Shown here piece by piece: positions 1-45,274 of a stretch of 64,000 nucleotides of DNA. How positions within the stretch are numbered: position 1 is the stretch's first letter; every line of letters starts with the position of its first letter. The notes under the pieces are model-generated. The model searched no databases. It was not told the origin of the DNA and saw nothing but the letters and a program-made list of their open reading frames with translations. The stretch covers positions 54,196 to 118,195 of the forward strand of contig JALHRB010000007.1 of assembly GCA_022841665.1 (NCBI GenBank). The letters are read 5' to 3'. This DNA comes from Pseudolabrys sp. GTDB lineage: Bacteria > Pseudomonadota > Alphaproteobacteria > Rhizobiales > Xanthobacteraceae. Position numbers and translations under genes: made by a program.

Positions 1-62
1 TTGCCCTGAAAATTCCGTGTCCCGGGCGCCCGTTCCCGACGGCGCTGTCGATGCGCCCGGAG

Positions 63-776
63 CTACCCGACGACCGTCGCGCGCCCCTTGCCGCGCAGCA
101 CGGCCTCGATCGCACCCTTGTCCGCGATCGAGAAAACGATGATAGGCAAACGATTTTCCCGGGCAAGCGCGAAAGCGGCGCCATCCATGACGCGCAGGTC
201 CTTCTCGATCGCTTCCTGGTGGCTAATCCGCTCGTAGCGCTTGGCCTGCGGGTCTTTCTTGGGGTCGGCGCTGTAGACGCCGTCCACATTGGTGGCCTTG
301 AGCACCGCCTGCGCCTCGAGTTCCGCCGCGCGCAAGACCGCGGTGGTGTCGGTGGTGAAGAACGGATTGCCGGTACCGGCGGCGAGCAAGACGACGCGGC
401 CCTTGCCGAGGTTCTTCATCGCGCGCTTGCGGTTGTACTGCTCGCAGACCGAGGGCATGGCCAGCGCCGAGAGCGTGCGCGCCTCGCAACCGGCGCGCTC
501 GATAGCGGCTTCGAGCACCAGGCAGTTCATCACGGTGGCGAGCATGCCCATGGTGTCGCCGACCGGGCGCGGCACGCCGCGCTCCGACACTTCGACACCG
601 CGGAAGATGTTGCCGCCGCCGACCACCACGCCGAGCTCGACGCCGAGCCTGGCGGTGGCGACGAGATCGGCGGCGAGCCGCTCGACCGTGACCTGATCGA
701 TGCCGAAGTCGCCGTTGCCGGTGAGCGCCTCGCCGGACAGCTTGACGATGACGCGTCGGTAGACCGGATCACTCAT
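63..776 (-). CDS. pyrH: UMP kinase
   Basis: 237-aa ORF with typical PyrH sequence ([18 protein letters not shown]). Sits in the conserved rpsB-tsf-pyrH order. Confidence 0.95.
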
Positions 777-839
777 GCCTTGCGATCCCCCAAGCGGCTC
801 TCCAACACGGCGCCGGCGCGAAGCGGCTGGCGCTGCGCT

Positions 840-1763
840 TTAGCTCTGACCGGCGGCGGCCGCCACTTCGGCGGCGAAGTCGGTTTCCTGCTTCTCGATC
901 CCCTCGCCGAGCGCGTAGCGCACGAAGCCGGTAATCTTGATCGGCCCGCCCACTTTGCCTTCGGCCTCCTTCAGCGCCTGCGCGACCGTCTTCGAGGTGT
1001 CGTGCACGTAGACCTGCTCCAGCAGGCAGACTTCCTTATAGAAGGTCTTGAGGCCCGACTCGACGATCTTGTCGATCACGTTGGCCGGTTTCCCCTGTTG
1101 TCTGAACTTGTCGGCGAGCACGTCCTTCTCGCGCGCGACCACGGCCGGGTCGAGGCCGGCGGCCTCGAGCGCCTGCGGGTTGGCGGCGGCGACGTGCATC
1201 GCGACCATGCGGCCGAGCGCGACGAGCTCGTCGGCCTTGCCGGACGATTCGAGCCCGACCAGCACGCCGATCTTGCCGAGGCCGTCGATGACCGAGTTGT
1301 GCACATAGGACCCGATGACGCCCTGCTTCACCTCGAGCGCGGCGGCGCGGCGCAGCGTCATGTTCTCGCCGACCTTGGCGATGGTGTCGGTGATGGCCTC
1401 GCCGACCGTGATGCTGCCGGCCTTGGCTGCCTTGATCGCCTCGACGTCGGTGCCGACGGCGAGCGCGACATCGGCGATCATCTTCACGAGGCCCTGGAAC
1501 AGGTCGTTGCGGGCGACGAAGTCGGTCTCCGAATTGACCTCGACCACGACGCCCTTGGGGCCCGCCACCTTGACGCCGATGAGGCCTTCGGCCGCGACGC
1601 GGCCGGCCTTCTTGGCGGCCTTAGACAGGCCCTTCTTGCGCAGCCAGTCCTGCGCGGCGGTCATGTCGCCGCCCGTCTCGGTGAGCGCGGCCTTGCAATC
1701 CATCATGCCGGCGCCGGTCGACTCGCGCAGATCCTTGACCATTCCTGCGGTGATATTAGCCAT
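840..1763 (-). CDS. tsf: Translation elongation factor Ts
   Basis: 307-aa ORF. N-terminal UBA-like motif [24 protein letters not shown]. Lies directly downstream of rpsB. Confidence 0.95.
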
Positions 1764-1858
1764 CGAACTATTCCTTCATGCGTAAAGGGCCGGGCATTTC
1801 CGGCGGCGGCGCCGTCACCGGCGCCGCGCAAACCTATTGAGGCGAGACGACGGCGGAA

Positions 1859-2860
1859 TTACTCCGCCGTCAGTTCCTTGGCCTTGGCGATCCAACCGCC
1901 GACGCGGCCCGGAAGGCCGACTTCCTCGCCGACATTGTGCGCGGCCTTGTCGTTGAGCTCGGCGATCTGCGTGTAGTGGAAAATACCGAGATCGTTGAGC
2001 TGCTTCTCGATCGCCGGCGAAACGCCGGGCAGCTTCTTGAGGTCGTCGGCGACGCCGCGCGGACCCGGAAGCGGCTCGAAGCCGAGATCGCCCGCCGCCG
2101 GAGCGGTCGGGATCTGCTCGGCGATGACCGGCTTGTCCTGCGCGCCGATGTCGACGCCCGCTTCGCCCTGGGCGCGCGAGATGCCGTCGATGGCGGCCTT
2201 GGCGATCAGGTCGCAATAGAGCGAGACGGCGCGGCTGGCGTCGTCGTTGCCCGGCACCGGAAAGGTGATGCCGACCGGATCGCAGTTGGTGTCGACGATG
2301 GCCGCGACCGGAATGTTCAGGCGCTGGGCCTCCTTGATCGCGATGTCTTCCTTGTTGGTGTCGATCACGAACAGGAGGTCGGGCACGCCGCCCATGTCCT
2401 TGATGCCGCCGAGCGAGCGGTCGAGCTTGTCGCGCTCGCGCTGCATGGTGAGGCGCTCTTTCTTGGTGTAGCCGCCGCCGTCGCCCGAGGAGAGCATCTC
2501 GTCGAGCTTGCGCAGGCGCGAGATCGAGCCCGAGATAGTCTTCCAGTTGGTCAGCGTGCCGCCGAGCCAGCGCGAATTGACGTAGTACTGCGCCGAGCGC
2601 TTGGCGGCGTCGGCGATGGCGTCCTGCGCCTGGCGCTTGGTGCCGACGAACAGGATGCGGCCGCCTTTGGCGACGGTGTCGGAGACCGCTTTCAATGCCT
2701 GATGCAGCATCGGCACGGTCTGGGCGAGGTCGACGATGTGGATGTTGTTGCGGGTGCCGAAGATGTATTGACCCATCTTCGGGTTCCAGCGGTGGGCCTG
2801 ATGGCCGAAGTGCACGCCAGCTTCCAAAAGCTGACGCATCGAGAAGTCAGGAAGAGCCAT
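1859..2860 (-). CDS. rpsB: 30S ribosomal protein S2 with a C-terminal extension
   Basis: Track ORF 1859..3079 trimmed to the internal ATG at 2860 ([21 protein letters not shown], the canonical S2 N-terminus). The ~80-aa tail contains an HhH-like motif. Confidence 0.92.
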
Positions 2861-11416: not shown

Positions 11417-11785
11417 ATGCGTGCGGGCGTAAGAAAAGCGCTGAATGTGGTGGCGATCCTGGCGATCGCCCTGCACACCGTGCTGTGGGCGGGCGCCATG
11501 CCCTCCGCCGGCGCCGCAGTCGATCCCTTCAGCGTCATCTGCCACAGCGGCGAGCCGGCCGCCGACGCGCAGGCTCCCGACGCGCCGGCGCAGGCGCCGT
11601 CCAAGGCCTGCGACCATTGCAGCCTGTGCGCCTCCACCGCGGCGGGCGTGCCGCCCGAGGACATCATCGCCGGGCGCCTCGCGCCGGCCCGCGTCCTGTT
11701 GCGGCTAGCAGTGGCGACGTCGGCGCGGCCGCCGCACGAACTCGGTACCGACAAGCTGCCACGAGGTCCTCCGCAACCGGCGTGA
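11417..11785 (+). CDS. DUF2946-like cysteine/histidine protein
   Basis: N-terminal hydrophobic segment, then ICH..CDHCSLC motifs. Sits upstream of the YcnI-CopC-CopD genes, as is typical for this family. Confidence 0.55.
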
Positions 11786-11837
11786 AGCGTGCGGCGCAAG
11801 CCGCTTTCCCCTTCCGCCCATTGCAAGGATCACATCC

Positions 11838-12368
11838 ATGTCTCGTCTGAACCTTCGCGGCTGCGCGCGCGTTGCCGCCGCCTGTTATTTTCTCACCGCC
11901 GCACCCGCCTTCGCCCATGTCACGCTCGAGCAAAAGGAGGCGCCGGTCGGCGCTTCCTACAAGGCCGTGCTGCGCGTGCCGCACGGCTGCGGCGATTCAC
12001 CCACCGTGCGCATCACCGTGCGCATTCCCGAGGGCGTCATCGCGGTCAAGCCGATGGTGAAGCCGGGCTGGAAGATCGCCGTCAAGAAAGGCGCCTACGC
12101 CAAGTCCTATGGCTACTTCCACGGCGCGACCTTCTCGCATGGCGTCAAGGAAGTGACCTGGAGCGGCTGCCGGCTGCCGAACGACTTCTACGACGAGTTC
12201 GTCTTCGCCACCTTCATCGCCGGCGAGCTGCCGGCGGGGCAGACGCTCCACTTCCCGGTGGTGCAAAACTGCGCGAAGGGCGCCCACCACTGGGTTGACC
12301 TGCCGGCCGCGGACGGCAAGCCTGCCAAGGAACCTGCGCCGGGCGTCAAGCTGGTACCGAAGAACTAG
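11838..12368 (+). CDS. YcnI-family (DUF1775) periplasmic copper-binding protein
   Basis: Signal peptide ends AFA followed by HVTL, giving a mature N-terminal His. GASYKAVLRVPHGC motif present. Confidence 0.8.
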   Translation: MSRLNLRGCARVAAACYFLTAAPAFAHVTLEQKEAPVGASYKAVLRVPHGCGDSPTVRITVRIPEGVIAVKPMVKPGWKIAVKKGAYAKSYGYFHGATFSHGVKEVTWSGCRLPNDFYDEFVFATFIAGELPAGQTLHFPVVQNCAKGAHHWVDLPAADGKPAKEPAPGVKLVPKN

Positions 12369-12741: not shown

Positions 12742-13956
12742 TTGATTGAGCCGCTGATCCTGGTGCGGGCTTTGCACTTCGCGGCGACGCTGCTGGCGTC
12801 CGGCACGGTGGGGTTCGGCGTGGCTGTGGCGCGAGGCGACATGCCGCCGGCCTTGCGGCGGCGGCTCGCGTTCCTGACCTGGGGCGCGCTCGCCGCTGCC
12901 GTGCTGTCCGGCGCGGCATGGCTGGTGCTGCTTGCCTCCGACATCTTCGGTGCGCCCATCGTCGAGGTCTGCCTGAACGGGGGCGCCTGGTCGGTGCTGA
13001 ACGATACCCGGTTCGGCCAGGTCGCAAGCGTCCGACTGGCCGTCGCCGTCGTCATGGCCGCACTGGTGGCGAGTCCTGGCGCGCGCGCGCTGCAACTGGC
13101 GGCGGCCGCGCTGTTCGCCGCCCTGCCCGCCTGGACCGGGCACGCCGGCGCCGGGCTTGGGCCGGCCGGAACGGTGCATCTGTGGTCGGACGCGGTGCAT
13201 CTGCTAGCGGCGGCCGCCTGGCTCGGCGCCCTGCCGGCGCTGGCGCTGTTCCTGCGCATGGAGCGGCGCGCGGAGGCGCTGGCGGCGGTCACCGGCCGCT
13301 TTTCGAGGCTGGGCGTGGCAAGCGTCGCCGTCCTGCTGGCGAGCGGCCTGATCAACAGCTGGAACCTGCTGGGCGACCCGCGGAACCTGATCGCGACCGA
13401 CTACGGCCGGCTGCTTTTGCTCAAGATCGCCCTGTTCGTGGCCATGGTGGCCGTGGCGGCGGTCAACCGCTTCCACCTGACGCCGCGGCTGCCGGACGGC
13501 GGGGCCGCCGGCGCGCTCGCCCGCAACAGCCTCCGGGAGGCCGCCTTGGGCCTGGGCGTTGTCCTGTTCGTGGGGGCGCTCGGCACCGTGCCGCCCTCGG
13601 CCCATGTCCATGTCGCGCCCACCGCGATCCCGACCGAGGCGGCCTACGTCCATATTCACACCGCGGAGGCTATGGCGGACGTGATCGTCGACCCCGGGGC
13701 CACGCAAAACCGTGCGATCATTCGCCTTTCGCGCGATGATGGGCAGGAATACCCCGCCCGGCGCGTGCGGCTGGTGCTCGACCCGCCCAGCGGAGGGCAA
13801 TCGTTGCAGATCGATGCAAATCGCAACGCAGAAGGCGCCTGGGAAGCCGCCGGACTGACCCTGCCCGCACCCGGAACCTGGACGGTCAAGGTCGTGATCG
13901 GAACCGAAGCCGGCGGCGAACTCATCCTCGACGCGCCGATCATGATCGAACCCTGA
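12742..13956 (+). CDS. copD: CopD-family inner-membrane copper protein with an extra C-terminal soluble domain
   Basis: Eight hydrophobic segments, including the WTGHAG and HLxxAAxWLG motifs. TTG start lies 5 nt after a GAGGCGG. The C-terminal ~115 aa is non-membrane. Confidence 0.8.
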   Translation: MIEPLILVRALHFAATLLASGTVGFGVAVARGDMPPALRRRLAFLTWGALAAAVLSGAAWLVLLASDIFGAPIVEVCLNGGAWSVLNDTRFGQVASVRLAVAVVMAALVASPGARALQLAAAALFAALPAWTGHAGAGLGPAGTVHLWSDAVHLLAAAAWLGALPALALFLRMERRAEALAAVTGRFSRLGVASVAVLLASGLINSWNLLGDPRNLIATDYGRLLLLKIALFVAMVAVAAVNRFHLTPRLPDGGAAGALARNSLREAALGLGVVLFVGALGTVPPSAHVHVAPTAIPTEAAYVHIHTAEAMADVIVDPGATQNRAIIRLSRDDGQEYPARRVRLVLDPPSGGQSLQIDANRNAEGAWEAAGLTLPAPGTWTVKVVIGTEAGGELILDAPIMIEP

Positions 13957-36653: not shown

Positions 36654-36846
36654 GCGGACAAACCCGATCGATGCCCGACGGCTCGACAACCGCTCATCCG
36701 GTGCCGACAAACAGTCGCCGTGATCGGAAACGACCGGGTTATCCCGGTGCTTGTGTGCGAACGATCCTGCTTACGTAACCCCTTGACCCGTCTATAGCCC
36801 TGAGTTGTGCTTGTTCTCAAGCTGCAACTCGGCGTCGGGGGGCAAC

Positions 36847-38622
36847 ATGAGCCTGCAAGCCTTTGAGCCTGGCGGCGGTGCGCGCGCCTGGATACGCACG
36901 CACGCGCTCACATTGGCCATCGCCCTCGTTATCGGCGCGGTGATCCTGCTCGATCAAACCGGAGTCTGGAAGATAATCCCGGCCGACTCCGGGAAAGTCG
37001 CCGCCTGGCTGTTGGTCGGCCTCGGCTTTTTCATCGTAATCGACCAACTCTTCACCGGCCAGGATACCGTGCCCTCGATCACCTGGGCGGCGGCCGCGGG
37101 CTATCTCATCGCGGCCACCATCCTTCTCACCGCGCTGGCACAAGGCAGCGAGCCCGGGCCGAAATTATGGGCCCTGAGCCTCGGCATATTCGCGTGTATC
37201 ACGACCGCGTTGACGCTGACGCTTCGGGCACGGCCTGTGCCCTGGCTCACGGGCGCTCTCATTATTGCAGTCGCTGCCGCAGCAGCGGCCACCGCAACGA
37301 TCGTCGTTCCCGTCGTTCGCGCGCGGCCCGACCTCTGGATATTCGCTATCGCCGCGTTCGTTGGCAGTTCGATCACACTGCTGCTGCTGCTCTTGAACGA
37401 ACGCATATACGAGAAGCGCCACCGCATCATGCAGTCCCTGCTCGACGACCTGGCCGTGCGCCGCGCGGGAATTGAGCAAGGCGACATCGCCCTCCTGAAG
37501 ATGGCCGCGCACAAATACGGCACCAAGCTGCGCAACGGCGCGCCCCTGCCTGCTGAGGCGGCGGCGCAGAGTAACGCCGGCGGGCCGGCCGAAGCCCGCT
37601 GGCCGTTATTCTTGGCCGCAAGCGCTTATCTGGCCTTCAGCGTCGTCGGTTACGTGCTGCTGTTCACCCCGATCTGTGTTGTGTTTGGCGTGGACGTCGG
37701 TCCAGGCACGGCCAAGCCGGCGTGCTCGGCGAGCTGGATTTCAAGCGCACTCATATGGACCGCCGCCGAAAAAGTGGACTTCAAGGACCTGATCACGACT
37801 GTTGGAATTGCCGGAGTCGCCTTTCTGGGCGCGCATCTTTTTACGCTGCGCTACCTGTTCAAGGCGGCGTTGAACTCCGAATTGAACCAGTTCAAATGGA
37901 TACGCGGCGCCTTGCATTTGCTCACCGGCGTTGTGATCGGCGTCATTCTCTACCGTGCCCTGAAGGACACCGGCTGGCTCGCCGGCGCCGTGACGTCCTA
38001 TGCCGCGGCGCTCTGGTTCGGCGTCGCCTTCGCGTCAGGCTGGATACCGGACTTCGCGCTCGGAACTTTGTTTCGTCATCTGCGCGTCAGCAATCTCAAG
38101 AGCGTCGACGAGGACGTGTTGAGGTCGGCCGCGCTGGTGCCGATCGAGATCGTCGATGGGATCGATTACGACACGCGCTTCCGGCTGGAAGAAAACAACA
38201 TCATCGACGTGCAAAACCTAGCGACCTACAACCCGATTACTCTGTATGTGGAGACGCCGTTCGGACTTTCGCAGATTTTCGACTGGATATTGCAGGCCCA
38301 GCTTTGCCTCGCCGTCGGACCCAAGGGCTATGCCGAGCTGAGGAAGATCGCGATCCGCACCATCTTTCAGCTTGAAGACGAGGTGCGCGACGCGCCCGAC
38401 AATTACGCCAGCATGATCGGCAGCGCCCTGTTCGCAGGCGCGTCTCCCGAACGGCTGAAGGCGATCGCTGCCGCCGCTGCGGATGGCGGCGGGACGACGC
38501 CCGACCGCGTCGATCCCAAAGTCGTCAAATACGCCGTGAGCCAGATGTGCGGCAACCTTTATATCGTCTCGCTGCGCAGACTTTACGAATACATCTACCG
38601 AACGCCCGTAGCGCAGCCTTAA
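36847..38622 (+). CDS. Large polytopic membrane protein, unknown function
   Basis: Trimmed to the ATG at 36847 (MSLQAFEPGG). About 6 N-terminal TM segments, a soluble linker, more TM segments, and a ~190-aa C-terminal soluble region. No family recognised. Confidence 0.6.
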   Translation: MSLQAFEPGGGARAWIRTHALTLAIALVIGAVILLDQTGVWKIIPADSGKVAAWLLVGLGFFIVIDQLFTGQDTVPSITWAAAAGYLIAATILLTALAQGSEPGPKLWALSLGIFACITTALTLTLRARPVPWLTGALIIAVAAAAAATATIVVPVVRARPDLWIFAIAAFVGSSITLLLLLLNERIYEKRHRIMQSLLDDLAVRRAGIEQGDIALLKMAAHKYGTKLRNGAPLPAEAAAQSNAGGPAEARWPLFLAASAYLAFSVVGYVLLFTPICVVFGVDVGPGTAKPACSASWISSALIWTAAEKVDFKDLITTVGIAGVAFLGAHLFTLRYLFKAALNSELNQFKWIRGALHLLTGVVIGVILYRALKDTGWLAGAVTSYAAALWFGVAFASGWIPDFALGTLFRHLRVSNLKSVDEDVLRSAALVPIEIVDGIDYDTRFRLEENNIIDVQNLATYNPITLYVETPFGLSQIFDWILQAQLCLAVGPKGYAELRKIAIRTIFQLEDEVRDAPDNYASMIGSALFAGASPERLKAIAAAAADGGGTTPDRVDPKVVKYAVSQMCGNLYIVSLRRLYEYIYRTPVAQP

Positions 38623-40316: not shown

Positions 40317-40348
40317 TGACATCAAGGCACAGCGCCCCAAACAAAAAG

Positions 40349-40628
40349 AAACGGCGCCTTGCGGCGCCGTTTCGCGTTTCATGGGGACCGCCCGCCTCAG
40401 TGCGCGGTGAGCCCTGAGCCCTCCTCGTCGCCATCGGCCGCCGGCGTGGCGAGCTTGGCATTCTCCTCGTCCCAGACGATCGGCTCCGGCTTGCGCACCA
40501 GCGCGTGCGCCAGAACCTCGTCCATGCGCGTGACCGGGATGATCTCCAGGCCCTTCTTGATCGTGTCGGAGATTTCCACCAGGTCCTTGGCGTTCTCCTC
40601 CGGAATCAGGACGGTCTTCATGCCGCCG
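40349..40628. repeat. Left 280-bp direct repeat (lon terminator plus lon 3' end)
   Basis: 278/280 identical to 42800-43079. The only differences are at 40592 (g vs a) and 40604 (a vs g). Confidence 0.95.
40397..40628 (-). pseudogene. lon: Orphan 3' fragment of lon (last ~76 codons)
   Basis: Encodes ..[43 protein letters not shown], identical to the C-terminus of the intact Lon at 42848-45274. Upstream homology ends abruptly at 40628. Confidence 0.9.
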
Positions 40629-40693
40629 ACTTACATGGCCGATCCGTTGCACAACAATTGGCACAGTTTCGCTGCATAAGCCCCTCTGCGCTA

Positions 40694-42349
40694 TCAAATA
40701 TCTGCAATGTGCGCCTCTTTCACTCTTACGTACGTCTTAGAATGCCCCTCGCCCCGCTCTTCAAGTTCAATGAGATCAATTCTGCCTATGAATTCGTGAA
40801 ATGATGCTGCTGCAAACCGACTGTAATCAAATTCTGGAAACTCAATCTTAAGCAAATGGCCTAGCTGACCTAAGAAGATCCAACCACCTTCTCGCCCATA
40901 CTTTCTTACAATTTCTGTGATTTTTGTGTGAGCCGATCGGAGTTGGTCATCATAATTCTGTTGTGAATTTTGACCATTGGAACGCATTCGCACGAATACC
41001 GCCTTTGCAGGACCAGTGCCGCGCTCGTCAAACTCTAAGCCGTCAAGTTTTCTTAGGACAGATATCAAATTTCGTCCGCCATACCTTTGCGGAGTAAACC
41101 CCGAAATTTGCTTGCGAAGTTCAGTGCCAAATTCAGCAAGCGATATCCAAGCGCCCTCATAGTCTGATAGTTGAACAATCAAATCTTCTGCAATTTTTGC
41201 CAAGTCCCTGCTTATCTCCGCCGTATCCCTGATAGGCTCAATTTCTTCAGGCAGCGGAATTGTGTAATTCTGAATTGGAAGGCTTTCGAGTGAACGCGCA
41301 CTTAGTTTGAACTTTCCAAGGAGCTTATCGACAGCGAGCAAAGCGCCTACACCATTCGGCTCGCCACGATAATCCCTAAATAAGGGAAAAATCTCTAAGC
41401 CCTTCAGCTCTCGTATACTAAGTAATGCATTAGTCACACGAAACAAAAAATCCCGCTCTTCGTATCTGCCTACCACATAGATGCGATCAATGCCTCTCCT
41501 CAGCTTTTCTTGTACTCTTTTTACGTAGGCTTCAATACCGGGTCTAAAGTCAGGTGGTTTGGAAACCAACAAAAACCCGTATGAGCTACAAGAGCCTTGA
41601 TAGCTCCAATCATGCTCAGGCTTATTTTTGCGAAGAAATGGTTGAAATCCCAACATATGAGATAAAATTGTTTCGATAGTAGTCGGCAGCTCAGCGCGCT
41701 CCGAATGGAACCGCGAGTTATTCGCGACATAGTCTATTTCCCGAAGGAAGGGCCCCATCAGCAATCCATACTCATTCAACCTTACACAATCTGCGAAGTG
41801 ATCCAAAACCATTTGCTTATCACCGGCAACCTGCTGAATGAAAACAGTGTCAAATTCGCCAAGCAAGTATGGATGGCTTTCCTCTAAGCCGGCTCGTGCA
41901 ATCGCAAGGGCTGCGCCGGAAACTAGTTCGTCCGGGAGAATGTCACGTGTGTTAGGAAACAGCGCACCACGAAAATAAATCCATAGTGTTTGCATTAGAT
42001 TATGATCGGTATTAACGCCGGGTCGGACTCTGAGAACTATTTTCCCATCTCTAAGTTGAGGCGCTTGAGAGTTTCGCACCCAGCGAACCTTTGCTCGCTT
42101 AACCCAGCCGGACGGAAGATACTGCTGTAAACGAAACGCCGTTTGATTCAGTACTTCCTCAATTTGAGTGGCGACCGCCTTTCGCCGAAAAAAAGGAATT
42201 GTAACGCTGTCCGCCAACAGTCGCCACAACTTTGATTGCGCTGACATGAGGCGAGGAAATGTAATCAATACCAGCCCAAATCCCTTGCCCGCGAGGTCTA
42301 CGCCGCCAAATATTGCAAGAACCAAAAGCAAAATTTCGAGCGTGTTCAT
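40694..42349 (-). CDS. 551-aa protein: N-terminal TM anchor, uncharacterised ~350-aa core, two C-terminal OST-HTH/LOTUS-like repeats
   Basis: Uninterrupted ORF in AT-rich DNA, where random long ORFs are unlikely. TM segment LEILLLVLAIFGGVDLAGKGFGLVLITF. Repeats GAWISLAEFGTELRKQISGFTPQRYGGRNLISVLRKL..VFVRM and GGWIFLGQLGHLLKIEFPEFDYSRFAAASFHEFIGRI..TYVRV. Confidence 0.8.
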   Translation of the reverse strand: MNTLEILLLVLAIFGGVDLAGKGFGLVLITFPRLMSAQSKLWRLLADSVTIPFFRRKAVATQIEEVLNQTAFRLQQYLPSGWVKRAKVRWVRNSQAPQLRDGKIVLRVRPGVNTDHNLMQTLWIYFRGALFPNTRDILPDELVSGAALAIARAGLEESHPYLLGEFDTVFIQQVAGDKQMVLDHFADCVRLNEYGLLMGPFLREIDYVANNSRFHSERAELPTTIETILSHMLGFQPFLRKNKPEHDWSYQGSCSSYGFLLVSKPPDFRPGIEAYVKRVQEKLRRGIDRIYVVGRYEERDFLFRVTNALLSIRELKGLEIFPLFRDYRGEPNGVGALLAVDKLLGKFKLSARSLESLPIQNYTIPLPEEIEPIRDTAEISRDLAKIAEDLIVQLSDYEGAWISLAEFGTELRKQISGFTPQRYGGRNLISVLRKLDGLEFDERGTGPAKAVFVRMRSNGQNSQQNYDDQLRSAHTKITEIVRKYGREGGWIFLGQLGHLLKIEFPEFDYSRFAAASFHEFIGRIDLIELEERGEGHSKTYVRVKEAHIADI

Positions 42350-42684
42350 GGTGAGCTCATTGCGCCGAGGCAGATTTTGGCGTCACAAAGGAAGGCGTAG
42401 CGCCCTTCTTTAATGACAAAACCAGCAAGGTTTTCGAACGTGAGCACGGTGTTGCAATGTGCGCAGCGTAGCTCGCCGTTGACGAGGGCATTAAACTGAC
42501 CAATCTCTTTAAGTAAATTTGTCAGGTCGTGGTCGGTAATTAGCGATACGTCCGCTTTCTGGAATCTCCCTAAAAAGGAGAGCCACCTCGTCCATACCGC
42601 AGATAAATGCACCCTAAGATTGAGAATCGTACTGCGCATATATCCCTCATCGCGGTCCATTTGATGGACCGGCGAATATTTCAT
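42346..42684 (-). CDS. Small (97-112 aa) Cys4 zinc-ribbon-like protein
   Basis: CAHC..(22 aa)..CDAKIC near the C-terminus. Its stop forms an ATGA overlap with the downstream 551-aa gene. The alternative ATG at 42639 has a GAGGGA Shine-Dalgarno and may be the real start. Confidence 0.65.
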   Translation of the reverse strand: MKYSPVHQMDRDEGYMRSTILNLRVHLSAVWTRWLSFLGRFQKADVSLITDHDLTNLLKEIGQFNALVNGELRCAHCNTVLTFENLAGFVIKEGRYAFLCDAKICLGAMSSP

Positions 42685-42723
42685 TTGACCGACTGATCTT
42701 GACCTAGACCCCCAGGTTAACTG

Positions 42724-42751
42724 ATATTAGAACATCCCTGAGTTGAATCAA
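42724..42751 (-). promoter_or_regulatory. Sigma-70-like promoter for the island operon
   Basis: On the minus strand: TTGATT, a 16-nt spacer, then TAATAT. About 40 nt upstream of the first ATG at 42684. Confidence 0.5.
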
Positions 42752-42790
42752 GTTTACGAACCGACTTTATAGATAGCGAGGTTCTTCGAA

Positions 42791-42823
42791 ACCAAAGAAA
42801 AACGGCGCCTTGCGGCGCCGTTT
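42791..42823 (-). terminator. lon rho-independent terminator (a second copy sits at 40349-40372)
   Basis: Stem aaacggcgcc-ttgc-ggcgccgttt with a T-run on the minus strand. Confidence 0.8.
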
Positions 42824-42847
42824 CGCGTTTCATGGGGACCGCCCGCC

Positions 42848-45274
<2,427 letters not shown>

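Follow-up and report, generated by a model that had tools for sequence, protein, structure and literature searches.

The founding survey of OST-HTH domains, also called LOTUS domains (PF12872), found the bacterial versions almost always fused to an LK/NYN nuclease (PMC2848206). Here we describe a LOTUS protein of a different build. It is encoded in a 64,000-nucleotide stretch of Pseudolabrys sp. DNA (contig JALHRB010000007.1, positions 54,196 to 118,195), hereafter the window. The protein, 551 amino acids (aa) long, combines an N-terminal transmembrane (TM) helix, a conserved core and two C-terminal LOTUS domains, and its gene lies directly downstream of a small partner gene. Bacterial LOTUS domains, previously seen almost only as appendages of NYN ribonucleases (RNases), have here been recruited to the membrane-anchored scaffold of a large, unmodelled family. 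A sequence-only reading of the window had proposed that the combination of TM anchor, core of no recognisable type and two OST-HTH domains is undescribed. This still appears to be so, because the survey reports bacterial OST-HTH domains almost exclusively with the LK/NYN nuclease, and the named relatives that we found are called only 'hypothetical protein' or OST-HTH/LOTUS domain. We consider it somewhat better than an even bet, with a probability of roughly 0.55, that the protein is an RNA reader tethered to the membrane and belongs to a horizontally mobile conflict module of two genes, which is probably directed against phages.

With the LabA/MARF1-like proteins (PF01936 plus PF12872), the window protein shares C-terminal LOTUS domains, one or two in number and of the minimal bacterial type, for which the nearest solved relatives are 2kzv and 2kpm. 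However, it has no NYN or PIN domain and carries a TM helix and an unmodelled core instead. Its family also has an obligatory zinc-ribbon-like partner and resides in islands and mobile elements. SzsA (Seongzusin) is a LOTUS protein of Pseudomonas aeruginosa defence islands that blocks the single-stranded RNA (ssRNA) phages PP7 and LeviOr01 (bioRxiv 10.64898/2026.04.06.716636). The likeness lies in a bacterial LOTUS protein whose island was gained by horizontal transfer and which is proposed to read phage RNA and to recruit effectors. Since no named Pseudomonas protein is among the relatives found, most of which are listed without name or organism, homology seems unlikely and SzsA is probably a different LOTUS protein. 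The TERNS3 conflict systems, predicted to act against invaders, contain effector modules with an OST-HTH domain and multiple S1 domains (Kaur et al. 2021, PMC8195603). They have LOTUS and S1 modules as readers in common with the family described here. Whereas TERNS3 are MoxR-vWA ternary systems with other partners, LOTUS, S1 and KH domains are here alternative C-termini of one TM-core family. Together with SzsA, the TERNS3 effectors provide precedents for LOTUS domains in conflict systems and count in favour of the reading given above.

The two-gene layout is also reminiscent of RexAB and Kiwa, two-gene abortive-infection systems with a membrane component. All are compact operons that pair a membrane protein with a second component and reside in defence islands. 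However, there is no sequence or structural relationship to RexAB or Kiwa, and no PADLOC match. In addition, the putative nucleic-acid reader is here part of the membrane protein, which has a single TM helix in place of a multi-pass channel. The genes and the parts of the large protein are as follows.

40694..42349, minus strand: large gene, 551 aa, with TM anchor, conserved core and two LOTUS domains (open reading frame (ORF), homologues, AlphaFold2 model, selection)
42260..42343, minus strand: N-terminal TM helix, residues ~3-30 (hydropathy, predicted helix)
41285..42259, minus strand: conserved core, residues ~31-355, with stalk helices, β-meander, six-helix bundle and Alba-like subdomain (core profile and models; no curated model found)
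41330..41605, minus strand: Alba-like β-α-β-α-β-β subdomain, residues ~249-340 (order of secondary structure and Foldseek; DYRG between the last two strands)
40982..41224, minus strand: LOTUS/OST-HTH domain 1, residues ~376-456 (PF12872; sequence match to 2kzv at residues 397-461)
40718..40948, minus strand: LOTUS/OST-HTH domain 2, residues ~468-544 (PF12872; best full-protein stretch 471-536)
42346..42684, minus strand: small partner gene (112 aa if read from the first ATG; 97 aa as annotated publicly, P0033)

PF12872 matches the whole protein in two stretches with 71.3 bits (E = 6e-20, Pfam). Scanned alone, each copy still exceeds the Pfam gathering score of 23.8 bits, copy 1 with 39.7 bits (E = 4.6e-10) and copy 2 with 41.0 bits (E = 1.7e-10). 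The copies are 32% identical to one another over 73 residues (E = 5e-10). Both show the pattern that the sequence-only reading had described, G(A/G)WI.L..(F/L)G followed by an acidic turn and (V/T)(F/Y)VR(M/V), which reads GAWISLAEFG...VFVRM in copy 1 and GGWIFLGQLG...TYVRV in copy 2. The segment that it had assigned to tandem OST-HTH domains, 40718-41218, corresponds exactly to residues 378-544, and profile searches bore the assignment out with a significant OST-HTH hit. On profile scores, the 551-aa protein is a true member of PF12872. In comparisons with five homologous genes, nonsynonymous divergence (pN 0.15-0.39) lies well under the saturated synonymous divergence (pS 0.80-0.86), which identifies the large ORF as a genuine gene under purifying selection.

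The predicted structure agrees with this assignment. In the AlphaFold2 model, each copy folds as three successive helices and a β-hairpin, that is, as a winged helix-turn-helix (HTH). The nearest solved sequence (E = 0.011) is 2kzv, a bacterial OST-HTH domain determined by nuclear magnetic resonance; Foldseek also returns it with the AlphaFold model (probability 1.00, TM-score to target 0.55). Neither copy has behind it the additional C-terminal helix by which eLOTUS domains are extended. The helix behind copy 1 continues directly into copy 2, after which the model has only a three-residue helix (548-550) in a low-confidence tail. As the extension helix is missing from the model, both copies look like minimal LOTUS domains and not like eLOTUS domains.

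The evidence that bears most directly on the role of the LOTUS pair comes from the wider family. Relatives of the full 551-aa protein number 32 among 5.8 billion clustered proteins; none is functionally named, and PF12872 is present in all of them except one fragment (P0030). A profile of the core, built from residues 45-355, matched 737 cluster representatives at E ≤ 1e-3, 319 of them at E ≤ 1e-10; for close relatives of the window protein, E-values went down to 1e-149. Most of the matches are 340-370 aa long and consist of TM helix and core with no C-terminal domain. Where a source names a core-family member, the name is 'hypothetical protein'. Judged from these profile matches, the unit of TM helix, core and partner occurs in hundreds of lineages, and the core defines a large family of its own, most members of which lack LOTUS domains. 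The window protein fits the family definition of a TM helix, a conserved core of ~310 residues and a CxxC...CxnC gene directly upstream.

C-terminal RNA-binding modules were detected in 12 of the 13 long family members scanned. P0038, P0041 and P0058 end in LOTUS domains; P0106, P0128, P0141, P0164 and P0171 carry one to several domains resembling ribosomal protein S1; and P0142, P0146, P0148 and P0165 carry NusA-type KH domains. Because the S1 and KH forms fall among distant, otherwise stand-alone relatives, we infer that the C-terminal fusions arose independently. According to these domain scans, LOTUS domains and arrays of S1 or KH domains can stand in for one another at one position of the TM-core scaffold. 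This exchange amounts to a natural domain swap that points to an RNA ligand, and the placement of three unrelated RNA-binding folds at one scaffold position is the strongest indication in support of an RNA-binding role for the LOTUS pair. The prediction of an RNA ligand would extend to the 'hypothetical proteins' of more than 700 clusters, which are found repeatedly beside genes for restriction-modification (R-M), bacteriophage exclusion (BREX) and cyclic-oligonucleotide-based anti-phage signalling (CBASS).

The stop codon of the partner gene overlaps the start of the large gene as ATGA, which suggests translational coupling of the two. In the partner, C59, C62 and C85 are invariant and C90 is present in at least 90% of the aligned sequences; the resulting pattern, CxxC...Cx4C, is consistent with a zinc ribbon. 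Partner homologues, identified by position and tblastn, lie directly upstream of the large gene in every locus examined, and the reading frames often overlap by ATGA there too. This was seen at seven independent LOTUS-type loci, at L010 and L011, at the stand-alone locus L012 and at the KH-type loci L013/L014, while gene tables place a small unannotated ORF in the partner position at L015, L019, L022 and L024. Among metagenome loci with enough upstream DNA, the partner was found in 30 of 30. As the partner holds the same position in every locus, the functional unit is the two-gene operon. A word-indexed homologue search with the partner returned only the window's own protein, comparison with curated families gave only sub-threshold zinc-finger matches, and no solved structure matches. 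A likeness to de novo TIM-barrels in the PDB was dismissed as spurious, as these are repeats of a short β-α unit. At L012 (1-3340), the start of the partner (1965..2279) lies within the end of a reading frame for a 667-aa protein (1..2004), which is recorded without a Pfam annotation; this overlap suggests a three-gene operon in that lineage.

The sequence-only reading was also right about the membrane anchor. The most hydrophobic 19-residue segment of the 551-aa protein starts at residue 3 (Kyte-Doolittle mean 1.98), and an N-terminal hydrophobic segment is found at the same position in 14 of 14 family members checked. The conserved core that follows it, ~325 residues long, is predicted to lie in the cytoplasm. 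Two AlphaFold models were obtained, one of the full protein (mean predicted local distance difference test score, pLDDT, 82.9) and one of the core with a deeper alignment (pLDDT 87.3, predicted TM-score 0.81). They concur on the layout:

residues 3-30: TM helix
residues 32-77: two long helices
residues 85-108: three-stranded β-meander
residues 114-233: six-helix bundle
residues 249-340: β-α-β-α-β-β unit
residues ~357-376: disordered linker
residues ~376-544: two LOTUS domains

Within the β-α-β-α-β-β unit, strands are predicted at residues 256-262, 289-294, 315-325 and 331-340, and helices at 272-284 and 296-309. Among the best 50 matches listed per Foldseek search against the PDB, the sole consistent ones for both models were Alba, Sso10b, Rpp20/25 and the C-terminal domain of IF3 (IF3-C), aligned over ~85-100 columns. 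Their TM-scores to target range from 0.55 to 0.74, with probabilities of ~1 and E-values of 0.03-0.3, none at or below 1e-3. Dozens of chains of the Alba superfamily stand at the top of both lists; they were placed on residues 249-340 by aligned length and topology, as query coordinates were not printed. Pfam gives no Alba hit in the whole protein or in residues 1-355. In the models, residues ~249-340 are thus Alba-like in fold only. The predicted topology is shared with Alba, Sso10b, Rpp20-Rpp25 and the IF3-C-like fold, whereas sequence and profile similarity to them is absent and the subdomain is here set within a larger membrane-anchored core together with a helical bundle. The helical bundle itself has no match in the PDB.

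The sequence-only reading had found no nameable motif in the middle region and had set the protein apart from NYN, PIN and LabA proteins. Accordingly, no PF01936 or PIN match was obtained at E ≤ 1, and residues 1-355 have no match in Pfam, NCBIfam, PADLOC or PHROG. We also looked for a cryptic nuclease or NTPase in residues 35-370 and rejected it: no library hits were obtained, the core profile retrieved nothing among PDB sequences at E ≤ 10, and the listed Foldseek matches to the two models comprise only Alba-type subdomains, with no PIN/NYN, P-loop or other enzyme fold. At least ten diverse core-family members likewise match no model in Pfam, NCBIfam or PADLOC; the only PADLOC signal, among 10 diverse family members, is one weak and partial LmuC match (E = 0.0011). 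With no PADLOC match for the window proteins either, a known defence system was rejected. The core fold and the two-gene system are without a characterised relative.

Near-invariance across the broad family is confined to N117, G195, E204 and Y275. The motifs QDxN, D..G.F...LRE and LVA.P recur in the core, and DYRG, at residues 326-329, does so in closer relatives. In BFVD, the whole core is matched by a single structure, A0A8S5TTG3 (E = 6.5e-14, 350 columns, TM-score to target 0.76), which is an uncharacterised protein of 346 aa encoded on a Siphoviridae metagenome contig. IMG/VR scans with the LOTUS-type and one stand-alone subfamily returned no relatives. Given these empty scans and the lone BFVD match, the idea that this is a phage gene is not supported.

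The setting of the operon in the window is that of a small insertion between lon (42848-45274) and a tRNA-Val gene:

40629..42789, no strand: low-GC island carrying only the two genes (2,161 bp, GC 46.6% against 64-65% in the flanks)
40339..40628, minus strand: distal flank, duplicated lon 3' end with terminator, a lon' fragment (290-nt direct repeat, 98%; hairpin 40373-40348)
42790..43079, minus strand: proximal copy of the repeat, the true lon 3' end with terminator (terminator-like hairpin 42824-42799)

GC content at third codon positions (GC3) is 0.43 for the island genes against 0.91 for lon. The contrast in GC and GC3 marks the island genes as foreign, and the two-gene island is therefore of foreign origin and horizontally acquired. 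The 290-nt repeat duplicates the last ~230 nt of lon and the terminator hairpin, and its part at 40350-40628 differs from the other copy by two mismatches. The island contains two genes only, with no integrase or transposase. Its layout resembles what a small circle with a lon 3' fragment would leave behind on Campbell-type insertion, although neither enzyme is encoded; the distal copy of the repeat also provides a terminator for the inserted operon. In and around the island, Rfam reports only two tRNAs and no cis-regulatory RNA, and a promoter scan of the region did no better than on shuffled sequence.

A relative of this island is found in an uncultured alphaproteobacterium (metagenome-assembled genome, CAVRIB010000024.1, 9612-10841; L011), where the same gene pair lies directly downstream of lon. 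Here an internal deletion in the large gene makes residues ~1-195 run directly into ~465-544, lon is not duplicated and tRNA-Val is inverted relative to the window. Nucleotide identity to the window is 68% for the island genes and 84-88% for lon and clpX, which points to rapid evolution or else to separate capture events at a hotspot. At L003, a ~270-nt duplication of the thiC 3' end (11706-11975 and 12879-13146) brackets a single OGG (DNA glycosylase-like) gene next to the gene pair. This second small cassette between duplicated gene 3' ends hints at a recurrent insertion mechanism.

Elsewhere, the pair often lies among genes of mobile and defensive elements. At one locus it stands beside BREX type 1, ArdC and SMODS/AGS_C (CBASS-like) genes; at another it directly follows a type III-like N6_N4 methyltransferase (MTase) and ResIII, near conjugation genes of the TraG/TrwB type; and at a third its neighbours include a serine recombinase, an HTH regulator, an MTase, NYN and ResIII. 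Single loci place it near TIR_2 and BrnT/BrnA, near RNase H and PIN/MazE, and beside a D12 MTase. A survey of 20 further loci, in which 122 ORFs were called, gave DNA methylases (12: nine N6_N4, three C5) and large serine recombinases (four) as the commonest neighbour families, and also included the restriction endonucleases NgoPII, HinP1I and DpnII, AbiEii-like and OLD-like ATPases, and AbiJ. An N6_N4 MTase was present in 8 of these 20 loci, usually just upstream on the same strand. Counted without a matched background, the pair recurs in unrelated genomes beside genes of R-M, BREX, CBASS-like, TIR, abortive-infection (Abi) and toxin-antitoxin (TA) systems and beside recombinases. At L027, L030, L034, L036 and L053 (also L022/L023), loci of the stand-alone subfamily, the pair is directly preceded, in the same orientation, by an MTase gene of the N6/N4 type, at times accompanied by a second gene. 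The module may thus be more than a mere neighbour, namely a regular accessory of certain R-M systems. At L009 (8063-11222), an insertion sequence element (DDE_3 transposase plus HTH genes) separates the partner from a truncated large gene, the C-terminal part of which is called as two separate products. This points to further disruption and to a decaying copy of the module. At L007 (2929-13826), the pair occupies an ~11-kb block, together with a 1068-aa metallophosphatase-like protein, a DUF885 protein and an amidohydrolase, between rplK (L11) and rplA (L1) in an otherwise conserved order of ribosomal-protein genes.

From the domains, the operon and this context, we infer the following function and mechanism. 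The LOTUS pair would read RNA, probably single-stranded or G-rich, and bring it to the membrane-tethered core. The Alba-like subdomain, with its conserved DYRG, may also contact nucleic acid, and the core could thereby hold RNA at the membrane's inner face. The zinc-ribbon-like partner may regulate, gate or co-assemble with the large subunit. The module would act in conflict with phages or other mobile elements, and most likely against phages. Two outcomes can be envisaged: RNA-templated clustering of the TM anchors could trigger a membrane-level abortive response, or invader RNA could be sequestered at the membrane. A wider proposal, which we put forward tentatively and hold to be possible rather than likely, is that the protein represents a widespread new family of membrane-anchored RNA-sensing anti-phage systems with a modular reader (none, two LOTUS domains, S1 or KH arrays). 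The LOTUS branch would in that case recognise structured or G-rich invader RNA, such as the genomes of ssRNA phages or phage transcripts, leading to a membrane-level abortive response. For the LOTUS family, a preference for G-rich and G-quadruplex (G4) RNA has been reported, with one of two bacterial domains binding and one not (PMC7498356).

Several points weigh against the proposed RNA reader and its conflict role. The bacterial domain that did not bind G4 RNA in vitro is the LOTUS domain NE0665 (PMC7498356). The family is described here from sequence and predicted models. A single TM helix argues only weakly for a pore-forming effector, and the conserved residues and motifs of the broad family include no recognisable catalytic motif. 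The predicted similarity to Alba is confined to the fold (E ≥ 0.03). PADLOC-DB v2.0.0 has no model matched by the two window proteins, the window island carries no further defence gene, and the LOTUS-type loci L003, L006 and L007 have no obvious defence neighbours. Finally, the neighbour survey used crude ORF calling and one subfamily, with no matched background, and some of its loci may be related strains.

Two other accounts of the module compete with the RNA reader, and we consider both unlikely, to about the same degree. The first is a TA-like addiction module, in which a membrane toxin restrained by the zinc-ribbon-like partner stabilises islands and has no anti-phage role. A strictly conserved two-gene operon with overlapping or close reading frames and a small upstream gene is what such a module would look like, and residence in mobile elements with recombinases and conjugation genes fits it as well. 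So do the sporadic distribution, with the LOTUS type encoded in only 2 of 185,579 species-representative genomes, and the existence of pseudogenised copies. However, C-terminal arrays of LOTUS, S1 or KH domains are hard to explain in a simple membrane toxin, and the partner lacks a DNA-binding domain for autoregulation. TA and abortive-infection roles can, moreover, coexist.

The second is an accessory factor outside any conflict, a membrane tether that localises or regulates cellular mRNAs in localised translation or RNA turnover. The co-occurrence of a membrane anchor with RNA-binding domains would suit this role, as would the loci that lack defence neighbours, and membrane-localised KH-domain complexes are known in bacteria according to a review (PMC11261784). 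Against it stand the extremely patchy distribution, the foreign GC and GC3, and the recurrence of R-M, BREX and Abi neighbours. The gene is also dispensable, because the same site in the L011 relative holds an internally deleted copy.

It is improbable, more so than either of these, that the LOTUS pair serves as a protein-interaction module, for example by recruiting or activating a DEAD-box helicase or another partner at the membrane. Such a role has a model in extended LOTUS (eLOTUS) domains, which bind Vasa and stimulate it (PMC5458760), and the bacterial domain that failed to bind G4 RNA (PMC7498356) would also be in line with a protein ligand. However, neither copy in the model has an extension helix of the eLOTUS type, and sister clades have classical ssRNA binders, namely S1 and KH arrays, at the equivalent position. 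The weakest alternative, a standard LabA/MARF1-like RNase whose middle region is a divergent NYN/PIN nuclease to which LOTUS recruits substrate RNA, has in its favour that almost all described bacterial OST-HTH proteins are of LabA-type architecture (PMC2848206), but it is effectively refuted by the lack of any NYN/PIN Pfam hit at E ≤ 1 in the whole protein or residues 1-355, by a core profile that finds no PDB sequence at E ≤ 10, by two AlphaFold models with no PIN-like or flavodoxin-like three-layer fold and only Alba-type hits among the listed Foldseek matches, and by the absence of a conserved cluster of acidic residues in the family.

The membrane-tethered RNA reader is the account that we prefer. 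If the module is defensive, it would add an RNA-sensing, membrane-tethered system to the bacterial immune repertoire, where understood defences against RNA phages or phage transcripts are scarce. Were the anti-phage role true, it would represent a new sensor-effector logic in bacterial immunity and a first function for a new protein fold. The family would also offer a compact two-gene cassette of 2.2 kb for experiments. Elsewhere in the window, a 605-aa ORF rich in hydrophobic segments (36805-38622, plus strand) lies just upstream of a region with a HAD-like hydrolase and tRNA-Asp.

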